Shown piece by piece: positions 53,400-56,325 of a stretch of 64,000 nucleotides of DNA. Source of the DNA: Promethearchaeota archaeon (GTDB lineage Archaea; Asgardarchaeota; Lokiarchaeia; Sigyniarchaeales; SOKP01); the NCBI GenBank assembly GCA_019058445.1, contig JAHPZA010000004.1:192001-256000 (forward strand), written 5' to 3'. Each line of letters begins with the position of its first letter. Position 1 is the first letter of the stretch. The notes beneath the pieces were generated by a model. The model was not told the DNA's origin. It ran no database searches and saw only the letters and a program-made list of their open reading frames with translations. Both the position numbers and the translations under genes were made by a program.

Positions 53400-53419
53400 A
53401 ATAACTCTGATACCCTTTC

Positions 53420-53806
53420 TTATTTTATGATTGAGATTTTGGTATTCATCCCATTCATTGCTTTTTGAAACAACTCGATATTTGCCGTAATTTTGCCAAT
53501 TTTATTAATTTTATTTGGCATTTCAATTGTTTCCAAAATAATAATCATTTCATCTGTTTTTGGACTATATACGATATCCGCTTTCTCAACGTTTCTAGTA
53601 GCTTTTGAGTCAGGTCCCTTTCTTATCCCAATTGGTAAAGTCCAATAATTTTTCGAGCCAAATCCAAATCTCCCTCTCAAAACAAAGGGCATTTTTCTTA
53701 GTATCGCATCTGCCGAAATGGGACCCAAATGTCTTGTTATAAGCCCCTCTACATTTCCTACGTTAAATATTTCTATTCGAATCTTTATATCTCCTTTACC
53801 AGACAT
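53420..53806 (-). CDS. Cyclophilin-like fold protein
   Basis: 'R.L.P.S..AI...MPF', 'VEK.DIVY.P', 'IGKI'. Confidence 0.65.
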   Translation of the reverse strand: MSGKGDIKIRIEIFNVGNVEGLITRHLGPISADAILRKMPFVLRGRFGFGSKNYWTLPIGIRKGPDSKATRNVEKADIVYSPKTDEMIIILETIEMPNKINKIGKITANIELFQKAMNGMNTKISIIK

Positions 53807-53995
53807 GTCTTGTTAATAAAATAAATTAAAGTATATATATTATTTTAGATGGATGAAAATTTTGATCATCTTATCTAAGTAGTGGATTTTTAATAGCTGT
53901 AAATCGTTTAATAAACCTATAATAACGCTTTGTATTAGAGTTATTTTCAGTTTAATATGTTTTTTCCCAAATTCAATAAAAAATTAATAGTAAAA

Positions 53996-54003
53996 TTTAA
54001 ATA
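53996..54003 (+). promoter_or_regulatory. Archaeal TATA box (TTTAAATA) preceded by a purine-rich BRE-like gtaaaa, for the candidate ncRNA
   Basis: Ends 22 nt upstream of G54026, the first base of the terminal helix. Confidence 0.5.
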
Positions 54004-54025
54004 TTCAATTTGTTATATTATTTGT

Positions 54026-54579
54026 GGACAATAGTAAGCATTGGTTTAAGTTACGTTAATACGGAACTAAACAATAGTAAGATAGAAACAGGTAATTAAT
54101 CGGTTCATAATTTCCGACGAATTTTTTTTTTTTATTCTTACGGAGATTGCACGTTTCTGAATTACATCTATAAATTTTCATTATATTATTAACCATTAGT
54201 ACACGAAGTACTAATCTACATTCAAATTTCAAAATAATCCAAAAAAATCTTTACGCTGGTGCTCCATTTTAAAGATTTGCCTTCAAGTTATTCCCGAAGC
54301 TAAGATTAATCCACTAATAACTGTGCAAAGTTGTACTTTAATTCCAAAAATGTGATTTAAAGTCGTTTTAACGAGTAGTAAATTTTTACACCATTAGGGA
54401 GTTCTAAGAGACTTTAAAGATCATTACTACATTACAACAAAATCTCATGTAAAATTAATGTGTTTTTTAAAATAGGGACTTATATTCCGAATGGTTTAGT
54501 TAAAAATTCTCAGGAGTTTTATACCCAGTAGAAACAGAATCTCAGAGAATTAAATAATATTCGGACTTTACTATTGTCC
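54026..54579 (+). ncRNA. Candidate large (~554 nt) highly structured non-coding RNA of unknown family
   Basis: ggacaatagtaa (54026-37) is complementary to ttactattgtcc (54568-79); multiple internal helices; G-U pairs favour the + strand; no ORF >=60 aa. Confidence 0.6.
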
Positions 54580-54580
54580 C

Positions 54581-54592
54581 TCTCTTTTTTTT
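54581..54592 (+). terminator. Pyrimidine/T-tract immediately after the terminal helix (archaeal-type terminator)
   Basis: tctctttttttt directly 3' of the candidate RNA. Confidence 0.4.
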
Positions 54593-55448
54593 ATAGATTT
54601 TCCAATTCAATTAAATCTAATTTACTATCGATATCATAAAACATGTACTTCTTAGAAATTTCTACAGCAATAATTCTTTTTCCTTGTTTTACCATATAAT
54701 TAACTATCTCTCTAATAGTTTTAACTGATTTTTTTTTCTCAGCGCTAATAATTTCTTGAATGAAGTCATAGGGAAATAAAAAGATTGGAACGATTTGATT
54801 AACAGTTTCAGAACTAGTTATTTCACTTAAGTTTATCTTTTTAATTCTCTTAAGAAAGTTTTGCATCTCTTCATTTTCTATATCAGCTACAGAAATTATT
54901 TTTGATTGAATTCCTTTTTGAAAAAAAGTTTTTTGAATTTTTCTGTAAAATATTAAAGGTTTTTTTTTAATTACACTCAAATTATCTTCGATAAACGAGA
55001 AAATCTCATTTAAGAGATGATGCTGAAAAATCGTATCTCCAGGAATGATAAGATATACATATCTATCTTGGTAAAGCTGCTTATTCTTGGTAAAGGAAAG
55101 GAAGGAATAAAGCGGTCCTAATTTATATTCATCTGTCGCATCAACCACATACAGGATATTATTTATCTCTGCATTATATCGTTTCAATCTAGCAATAAAT
55201 TCATCAATTTTTTTTGCCAAATATCCTTTTACTATTGCGATTTTCTTAACACTCAAATTTATTAATAAATCAATGGTAAATTGAACGATTGGCTTGTTAT
55301 TTAGAGCAGGGATTTTAATTAATGGTTTTGGAGTGTTTTGTGTAAGTTCTTGAAGACGAACACCTTCTCCAGCACATAAAATAATCGTAAAAAGAGATTT
55401 ATTCCATTCCTTATTTGGTTGTGACAATTGTGTTCCCATCCAAGTCAA
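54591..55448 (-). CDS. Nucleotidyltransferase-family protein
   Basis: IILCAGEGVRL..LT...PKPL; PGD; DID. Confidence 0.8.
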   Translation of the reverse strand: MTWMGTQLSQPNKEWNKSLFTIILCAGEGVRLQELTQNTPKPLIKIPALNNKPIVQFTIDLLINLSVKKIAIVKGYLAKKIDEFIARLKRYNAEINNILYVVDATDEYKLGPLYSFLSFTKNKQLYQDRYVYLIIPGDTIFQHHLLNEIFSFIEDNLSVIKKKPLIFYRKIQKTFFQKGIQSKIISVADIENEEMQNFLKRIKKINLSEITSSETVNQIVPIFLFPYDFIQEIISAEKKKSVKTIREIVNYMVKQGKRIIAVEISKKYMFYDIDSKLDLIELENL

Positions 55449-56325
55449 TTATTATAGTGTGCTCTTGTTGAGCCACAAATTCACCAGATCTCTCAATCAA
55501 AATGGGATAATGATCAAGTATGTTCTTTCTTACAAATGCATCAATAGTTCTTTGTATTTTATTCTTCGGTATTAAGTTCTTATTTTCTAAAAATCGAGGG
55601 GAAAAAGGGAGGTGATTAGTATTTTTTTCAATTTTATTCATATAACCCTGCTGTTCATAGGGTAAGTTTTTCTTTTTTCGTTTAGCAAAACGATAAATAT
55701 AGGAATGTTTCCCATTTACTACTTTTCCTACTCCTGATGTAGTAAATGGTTCACACGCATATGCATCACCGGGTTTTAACACTTCGCTATGTAACGTTTC
55801 TTTATAATTTGGTATAAAAGGCCCCGCATGCAAATTATATTGCTTTAATTCATGACCACCTAGATTAGTAATTGGTCGTAAACCATGACTGATTATTTTT
55901 TGAGCAATGACTTCTCCTAACTCATAAAGTTTAGTTCCTGGTTTAAATATTTCAATTGCAGCTTCGAGACCCTCCTCTGCGGCATCTATATACGTTTGAA
56001 GTTTAGGATCTTCACCTAAATTTAAAGTTATCGCTGAGTCTGCAATATAACCATTGAAGTGAGAGCCAATATCTATTTTTAATAAACCACTTTCGGGTAT
56101 TAAGGTCTTATCATCAATTACGGGACTATAATGTGCTGCGACCTCATTTAAGGACATATTAACAGGAAATGATAATTCACAACCATTTTTGTAAATCTCA
56201 GCTTCAATTTTATTAGCCACATCTAAAAAAAAAGCTCCTGGTTTCACAATCTCTTTTGCTAATTTTTTAGCAGCAATCACGGCTTTTCCTGCTTTAATAT
56301 AATCTTGAATATAATCTTCAGTCAT
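55411..56325 (-). CDS. map: Methionine aminopeptidase, type II
   Basis: FPVN.S.N..AAHY, KIDIG.H..GYIADSA, NLGGH, LHAG, EPF, QQEHT. Confidence 0.96.
   Translation of the reverse strand: MTEDYIQDYIKAGKAVIAAKKLAKEIVKPGAFFLDVANKIEAEIYKNGCELSFPVNMSLNEVAAHYSPVIDDKTLIPESGLLKIDIGSHFNGYIADSAITLNLGEDPKLQTYIDAAEEGLEAAIEIFKPGTKLYELGEVIAQKIISHGLRPITNLGGHELKQYNLHAGPFIPNYKETLHSEVLKPGDAYACEPFTTSGVGKVVNGKHSYIYRFAKRKKKNLPYEQQGYMNKIEKNTNHLPFSPRFLENKNLIPKNKIQRTIDAFVRKNILDHYPILIERSGEFVAQQEHTIIIDLDGNTIVTTK

Follow-up and report, generated by a model that had tools for sequence, protein, structure and literature searches.

The window analysed here, a 64,000-nucleotide stretch of DNA, belongs to a metagenome-assembled genome (MAG) of Promethearchaeota, one of the Asgard archaea. 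Within it, an ORF-poor gap of 784 bp (53807-54590) separates two genes of the - strand, a cyclophilin-like gene (53420-53806; 128 aa; PF04126 at E 0.0016, below cut-off) and an NTP-transferase-like gene (54591-55448) whose product resembles a divergent sugar-1-phosphate nucleotidylyltransferase. The initial annotation had described this gap as free of ORFs, and this is borne out, since the sole frame in it is a trivial 58-aa TTG frame. It had also read the segment 54026-54579 as an independently transcribed structured non-coding RNA (ncRNA), a reading that is supported by the data presented below. An independent, stand-alone ncRNA gene of 554 nt on the + strand is confirmed at these positions, covered by metatranscriptome contigs and present as a single copy in the genome; the cyclophilin-like gene is transcribed divergently from it and the NTP-transferase gene convergently with it.

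Signals for transcription are found on both sides of the gene. Upstream, BRE-like purines and a TATA box (AAAA-TTTAAATA; 53992-54003, + strand) form a 12-mer common to 62 distinct homologues, in which it mostly reads AAGATTTAAATA and precedes the first G of the RNA by 22-24 nt. In the window, the TATA box itself (TTTAAATA, 53996-54003) lies 22 nt 5' of G54026, as expected from the earlier claim of a promoter at the archaeal distance. Downstream, an oligo-T terminator (T8, 54585-54592, + strand) corresponds to the T-tract that had been noted after the 3' end, and a T-rich run begins 0-6 nt past the terminal helix of the RNA (P1) in all homologues. The stop codon of the convergent NTP-transferase gene shares two bases with T8, the last two of the tract, and is only 11 nt away from the end of the RNA. 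Because the right flank consists of the 3' end of this gene, no space is left for a promoter on the - strand. A protein-coding gene or small ORF was ruled out: no open frame is conserved across the 62 homologues, frames counted from stop to stop are at most 53 aa long in the median homologue, homologue lengths range from 358 to 632 nt (median 491), and indels of many sizes occur throughout the alignment.

Transcription of the gene

Twenty-two RNA-library studies contain small shares of the words of the window (0.04-0.12), which are no evidence alone. Four metatranscriptome runs, one from rhizosphere, two from wetland and one from sediment, were mapped on 53400-55500, and all RNA contigs fall inside 54031-54580. 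They are 85-99% identical to the window and thus come from relatives. RNA depth is zero on 53400-54030 and 54607-55500 in the four runs, with no contig on either flanking gene, and these silent genes provide a control against DNA carry-over. Summed word depth reaches 570 (run X3), 153 (X4) and 840 (X5), contig depth not being convertible to copy number. Overlapping contigs (54047-54259, 54092-54261, 54154-54498 and 54238-54580) span the ncRNA, including an internal U12 tract, and one contig of run X3 runs into adapter directly after 54579, the predicted last base. Transcripts are thus confined to the limits that had been proposed for a + strand RNA starting near 54026 and ending at 54579; adapter orientation fits a + strand RNA as well, if the libraries are dUTP-stranded. 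Altogether, the RNA is considered stable and very abundant; the mapping shows that it is made in full length and accumulates far above the level of its neighbours' mRNAs.

Two further features of the contigs were recorded. In two independent runs, adapter lies directly before 54044, the last G of the conserved GCAUUGG box, and this end may be a reverse-transcription stop, caused by a modified base or by the P1 clamp, or else a processing site. Moreover, the T12 tract inside the gene (54122-54133) is read through, and its length differs by 1-4 T among the environmental relatives; the position of the internal T tract is conserved across genera. Archaeal RNA polymerase normally stops at runs of at least five T, and read-through of U12 makes this RNA a natural case for studying archaeal antitermination.

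Distribution, gene order and known RNA classes

Homologues were collected using the cyclophilin-like protein as an anchor, together with its flanking DNA. The ncRNA was found in this way in genera g1 to g5 and g7 to g13, all members of one family. In genus g6, a 360-nt form of the RNA lies 9 kb from the anchor and is still convergent with the NTP-transferase gene, with which it has been relocated. The RNA is present in every sampled genus of this Promethearchaeota family, once per genome, and some 130 species-level genomes retain it. The 3'-domain covariance model, which covers the four genera with that domain type, has matches in 93 of 131 family genomes, each time at exactly one site, and the 5'-domain sequence model has matches in 105 of 126, g6 included, again at a single site in each genome. 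Outside the family, the 3'-domain model gave no match in 19 genomes of three sister families, and matches of the 5'-domain model in sister families f2, f5 and f7 (E ~1e-3) proved to be coding DNA and were discarded. No gap is present beside the cyclophilin-like gene in sister families, nor downstream of the NTP-transferase orthologue in G050, a sister-family genome. As far as it has been searched for, the RNA is therefore restricted, judging by sequence models and gene order, to one family of Lokiarchaeia-type Asgard archaea.

Some observations on individual loci are of interest for the history of the site. In the sister family of G038, where the ncRNA is absent, a tRNA-Arg(CCU) gene (locus L134, G038:C1, 2474-2550) is convergent with the NTP-transferase orthologue; the first and last four bases of its acceptor stem (GGAC/GUCC) are those of P1, which is probably a coincidence. 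In a MAG of the same genus as the window's (locus L005, G002:C170, 1548-3154), an insertion of ~840 nt carries a 128-aa ORF of an unrecognised family; beyond it, part of the 3' domain occurs a second time, at 90% identity to the window. Either part of the gene was really duplicated or two strains were joined into a chimera during assembly. Weak second matches of the 5'-domain model, which lack P1 and cover model positions ~15-120 with E values of 1e-4 to 1e-2, occur in some family genomes, for example at G078:C48:8892-8989, G057:C265:674-765 and G101:C39:10829-10933, and could be chance matches in A+T-rich DNA or a shorter paralogous RNA. The pattern GGACAATAG-N(1-14)-GCATTGG was also scanned in metagenome and viral contigs. 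Among the matches listed, which are mostly due to chance, two of the 239 fetched loci (L145 and L150) score with the family HMMs and none of the 119 viral contigs does, so that these scans are weakly informative on habitat or on absence from viruses.

The neighbours of the RNA offer no functional lead, as neither conserved gene, cyclophilin-like or sugar-1-phosphate nucleotidylyltransferase-like, appears to be RNA-related. The 128-aa cyclophilin-like protein is kept throughout the order, including where the ncRNA is absent. The NTP-transferase homologue is convergent and adjacent at 61 of 66 RNA loci, and this arrangement, retained even in g6, together with the closeness of its stop codon to the RNA end, raises the question of a cis element that would act on this gene by interference, as an antisense RNA at the 3' end of its mRNA, or as a shared bidirectional terminator. 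However, such a role needs no 500 nt with invariant boxes, a covarying end helix and very high levels of RNA. No RNA contig enters the NTP-transferase gene, the g4 loci lack this neighbour in the examined flank, and the adjacency may be inherited gene order. A cis function is thus considered very unlikely.

The RNA was also compared with known classes. Rfam 15 gave no match at gathering score on the 64-kb window, only chance fragments of snoRNAs and miRNAs at E<=10 on the ncRNA, and nothing at E<=1 on ten homologues, each from another lineage. Together with the absence of ARAGORN genes, this agrees with the earlier statement that signatures of RNase P, SRP and tRNA are lacking. For RNase P RNA, RF00373 does not match the ncRNA, and the genome carries its own copy elsewhere (G000:C3:7495-7803, 127.5 bits); a likeness to RNase P CR-I on the - strand is not conserved in relatives. 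ARAGORN found no tRNA or tmRNA genes on the ncRNA and ten homologous loci and did detect the tRNA-Arg of L134; a likeness to tRNA D-loops and T-loops was dropped. A Y RNA was rejected as well, since PF05731 (TROVE), the domain of Ro60, occurs in none of 41 family genomes and is missing from the host genome too, with control genomes positive. U6 snRNA (RF00026) gave no match, and its look-alike boxes stand in another order, with two of them altered in the RNA of the window. OLE, ROOL, GOLLD, HEARO and raiA RNAs were likewise rejected, with no gathering-score match in the window and none at E<=10 on the ncRNA or at E<=1 on the homologues.

SRP RNA deserves separate mention, because RF01857 was not detected in the host genome (92.6% complete), which may be due to an assembly gap or to a missed divergent copy. 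Archaeal SRP (7S) RNA resembles the ncRNA in being abundant, in its strong BRE/TATA promoter, in its closing end helix and in its occurrence once per genome. However, RF01857 does not match the ncRNA at E<=10, no motif of the helix 8 type is seen in it, and the relatives that carry both RNAs have them on separate contigs, the SRP gene being ~317 nt long with 45% G+C. SRP RNA was found besides the ncRNA in G001, G002, G003, G019, G022 and G024 (57-93 bits); over 41 relatives, RF01857 is present in 30, always under the Rfam gathering score (46-93 bits). A mobile element of the MITE type was also considered. The ncRNA has one full match in the 4.61-Mb host genome, which argues against a MITE, as do the single syntenic site per genome in 93-105 relatives and a P1 helix that covaries with G-U pairs. 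Altogether, a very divergent universal RNA (SRP, RNase P, tRNA- or tmRNA-like) or a MITE relic is extremely unlikely. Paired ends like those of archaeal SRP and RNase P RNAs, the undetected SRP RNA of the host, an inverted repeat at the termini and the tRNA-Arg at the equivalent site of a sister family would fit such an origin, but the separate RNase P and SRP genes, the failed searches and the single syntenic copy speak against it. No published description of the RNA was found in the full-text literature searched, Asgard archaea included. To our knowledge, rRNA, RNase P RNA and SRP RNA are the only large stand-alone structured ncRNAs described so far for archaea. The gene encodes a real, conserved and highly expressed large RNA of a new family.

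Terminal helix, inner helices and conserved boxes

The ends of the RNA form helix P1, in which the 5' strand (54026-54038, + strand) pairs with the 3' strand (54567-54579, + strand), whose last base is the mature 3' end. Exact complementarity of the 12-nt arms 54026-54037 and 54568-54579 had been pointed out before; it was confirmed, and the arms occur nowhere else in the window. A G38-U67 wobble (54038/54567) extends the helix to 13 bp, and its length in the homologues is 10-13 bp. Across the 62 homologues, pairing is kept in 85.8% of cells when all 13 positions are counted and in ~100% when only the first ten are. Compensatory cells number 78, compared with 31.8 in column shuffles, none of 1000 shuffles being as high. 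Double changes are seen at positions 1, 2, 4, 6, 9, 10 and further in, position 4 being C-G, U-A, G-C or A-U and position 10 U-A, G-C or A-U. Wobble pairs (nine at position 4 and ten at position 11) are U-G or G-U only on the + strand and would be A-C mismatches on the opposite one, which identifies P1 as a helix of the + strand RNA; the earlier suggestion that mismatches resolve as G-U on this strand holds for P1 in the 62 homologues. Conservation in relatives and covariation of the closing helix, both put forward as checks on the initial annotation, were thus found. The sequence of P1 is unusually constant for a helix.

P1 is followed by a series of short boxes, which stay fixed, as does the sequence of P1, while the centre of the RNA diverges even inside a genus. 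The order from the 5' end is the P1 5' strand, GCAUUGG, a variable hairpin, and UUUCCGAC with A-U(6-12); then GUUCCUGUAGUGC and UUAGCACUUUGGAGCA; then CUCUUGUUGA, a second U tract and GAUACACGAGACA; then AAUAGGAGCUUUGAUU; and, in the 3' part, an apical hairpin, GAAACAA, AAUCGGAGC and the P1 3' strand. The GCAUUGG box (54038-54044, + strand) is the most invariant motif of the family, with C14, A15, U17, G18 and G19 invariant in 46 sequences from 11 genera. The hairpin after it (54045-54075, + strand) is present in both MFE and centroid folds; its position is kept and its sequence varies, a hairpin-capable segment being visible by eye in every genus. The UUUCCGAC motif and internal U12 tract (54111-54133, + strand) are Sm-site-like or terminator-like and represent a RAC-RA-U(6-12) motif that is kept ~100 nt from the start in most genera; a purine-flanked U tract is conserved there and again before the GAGAC box. 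Positions 54473-54492 (+ strand) comprise the AAUAGG box and, at 54486-54492, UCCGAAU, which is the 5' strand of the 3'-domain helix; AAUAG is invariant in 34-36 of 36 sequences.

An alternative pairing of P1 is conceivable, as the internal AAUAG box can pair with the P1 3' strand in competition with the 5' end of the RNA. The shared 3' base tracks the 5' strand in 59 of 62 sequences and the internal box in just 24 of 36, which marks P1 as the selected pairing and a switch as no more than a possibility. In the window, ACAATAGTAAG forms an exact 11-nt direct repeat at 54028-54038 and 54071-54081, a third AAUAG is found at 54473-54477, and the repeated box can pair with the P1 3' strand.

For the inner helices of the initial annotation the outcome was mixed. 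The hairpin AUUAGUAC/GUACUAAU (54195-54215, + strand) recurs in L004 and L005, both close relatives, and is homologous to the AGUGC/GCACU stem of other genera, where one position is G-C, G-U or A-U. The helix at the base of the 3' domain (54486-54492/54559-54565) also has counterparts in other genera; its 3' strand (54559-54565, + strand) reads AUUCGGA here and AAUCGGAGC elsewhere. The hairpin AAAUCUUUA/UAAAGAUUU (54245-54278, + strand) appears in MFE and centroid folds and is lineage-specific, being identical in G007, the closest relative, and absent from G002 and G003. Environmental variants in these two hairpins lie in predicted loops, at 54205 and 54207 in the first and at five sites (54255-54269) in the second, whose stems have none. 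By contrast, the long-range helix 54147-54155/54319-54328 and the gtaaga/tcttac helix that had been proposed are broken in close relatives; in the former, each of the four runs carries a fixed environmental variant, 54149 G>A, by which a G-C pair would become A-C. A crossing helix (54356/54418) is kept in one relative only. The 3' domain is an irregular hairpin of ~115 nt, with an apical hairpin followed by GAAACA (54507-54536, + strand). Its apical stem, read from alignments, is UUCA/UGAA in most genera and UUCU/AGAA here, an A-U to U-A swap, and this pairing competes with the aattctc/gagaatt helix of the earlier model. In the 3'-domain model, 80.4% of cells are paired, compared with 34-53% when partners are slid; covariation is weak, with 21 compensatory cells compared with 15.3 in shuffles, 22 of 500 being as high.

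For the + strand as a whole, the folding energy is -109.5 kcal/mol (z = -2.96), a stability that none of 100 dinucleotide shuffles attains; for the - strand, z is -2.27. All z-scores of sixteen folded homologues are negative (-1.1 to -4.85). The RNA folds better than shuffled sequences, which was one of the checks put forward for the initial annotation. The claim that it is extensively base-paired goes beyond what is shown, since several inner helices are not conserved and the RNA is not enriched in G+C: its content, like the homologue median, is 28.7%, compared with 30.6% for the genome, 46% for the RNase P RNA of the same genome and 44.7% for the SRP RNA of a relative. When MAFFT alignments of the complete RNA and of its 3' domain were folded with RNAalifold, hardly any consensus structure emerged; these alignments are not structure-aware, and the helices are rich in A-U and G-U pairs. 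A brute-force scan of column pairs returned P1 along with a few short helices, against a strong background of G-U pairs.

These features bear on the possibility of an RNA-only machine, either an ornate homo-oligomer or an undescribed ribozyme. The bacterial OLE, ROOL and GOLLD RNAs belong to the same size class and are likewise stand-alone genes with very high expression and lineage restriction, in which conserved blocks alternate with variable arms; they too were discovered by comparative genomics, their function being unknown at first. According to a cryo-EM report, ROOL, GOLLD and OLE form homo-oligomers of RNA without protein (PMC12286853), which gives a precedent for such an assembly. However, the present RNA has no sequence or structure match to them in Rfam, is archaeal, and differs from compact ornate RNAs in its background G+C (29%), moderate z-scores and weak covariation outside P1. 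It has no adjoining dedicated partner gene such as oapA, and no viral or plasmid link was seen, none of the 119 viral contigs among the 5'-pattern matches listed scoring with the family HMMs. We regard an RNA-only machine as rather unlikely.

A similarly small chance is given to a base-pairing riboregulator or sponge, in which boxes such as GCAUUGG, GAGAC, AAUAG and those of the UUGGAG type would pair with mRNAs, rRNA precursors or small RNAs. Abundance and the invariance of short boxes across genera, while their flanks drift, would suit this function. However, most boxes of the GGAG type have partners of the UUCC type inside the same RNA, and 360-630 nt with ends clamped by P1 are atypical for archaeal trans-acting sRNAs.

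A candidate ribonucleoprotein RNA and its significance

The reading we prefer, to which we give about an even chance, is that the ncRNA is the trans-acting RNA component of a ribonucleoprotein (RNP) peculiar to its lineage, in which it would be a scaffold or a sequestering RNA, with its U tracts as candidate sites for Sm-like archaeal proteins (SmAPs). A protein-held RNA is favoured over a compact ribozyme because of its sequence boxes, U-rich tracts, clamped ends, abundance and low intrinsic stability. The latter, indicated by background G+C and moderate z-scores, suggests that the fold depends on protein. P1 and the adjoining invariant GCAUUGG box would form a protein recognition platform and would also shield the ends. 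Sm-like archaeal proteins would bind at both conserved A-U(6-12)-R tracts, and the fast-evolving centre would act as a spacer or bear lineage-specific arms. Pairing of the AAUAG box with the strand that is the 3' partner of the 5' end might allow the RNA to toggle between closed and open forms.

Parallels to this role can be found among RNAs that bind or titrate proteins. The Sm-site consensus is a single-stranded R-A-U(4-6+)-G-R element to which an Sm ring binds. The A-U(6-12)-R tracts resemble it, but the basis for this candidate likeness is a short U-rich motif, and the genome has 70% A+T. Eukaryotic RNAs of the Sm class and archaeal RNAs bound by SmAP or Lsm proteins are comparable in their U tracts, in being stable and A+U-rich, and with regard to the Asgard host; the ncRNA differs in having no homology to any snRNA, and its likeness to U6 boxes is not kept in the RNA of the window. 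The bacterial 6S RNA and RNAs of the CsrB/RsmZ type are also abundant stand-alone RNAs, and they titrate a protein; those of the CsrB type carry repeated short boxes of the GGA type. However, neither gives a model match, the ncRNA is three-fold larger than 6S RNA, and its GGAG boxes mostly appear to be helix strands paired with UUCC. CsrA is a bacterial protein.

A stronger version of the preferred reading, decidedly improbable in our estimation, is that the RNA is the core of an Asgard-specific RNP bound by Sm-like proteins, in which several proteins would be organised and a closed form (5'-3' pairing) would alternate with an open one (AAUAG-3' pairing). If true, it would represent an abundant regulatory RNP of a kind that other archaea lack, functionally comparable to the Sm-class or 7SK-type particles of eukaryotes.

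The RNA is found in the closest prokaryotic relatives of eukaryotes, and it is visible in wetland, rhizosphere and sediment metatranscriptomes in which the mRNAs of its neighbours are invisible. An RNA at such a level usually has a central job in the cell, and its partners would open up new Asgard cell biology. Their identification would also be a test of whether RNPs of the Sm type, built on large dedicated RNAs, are older than eukaryotes.
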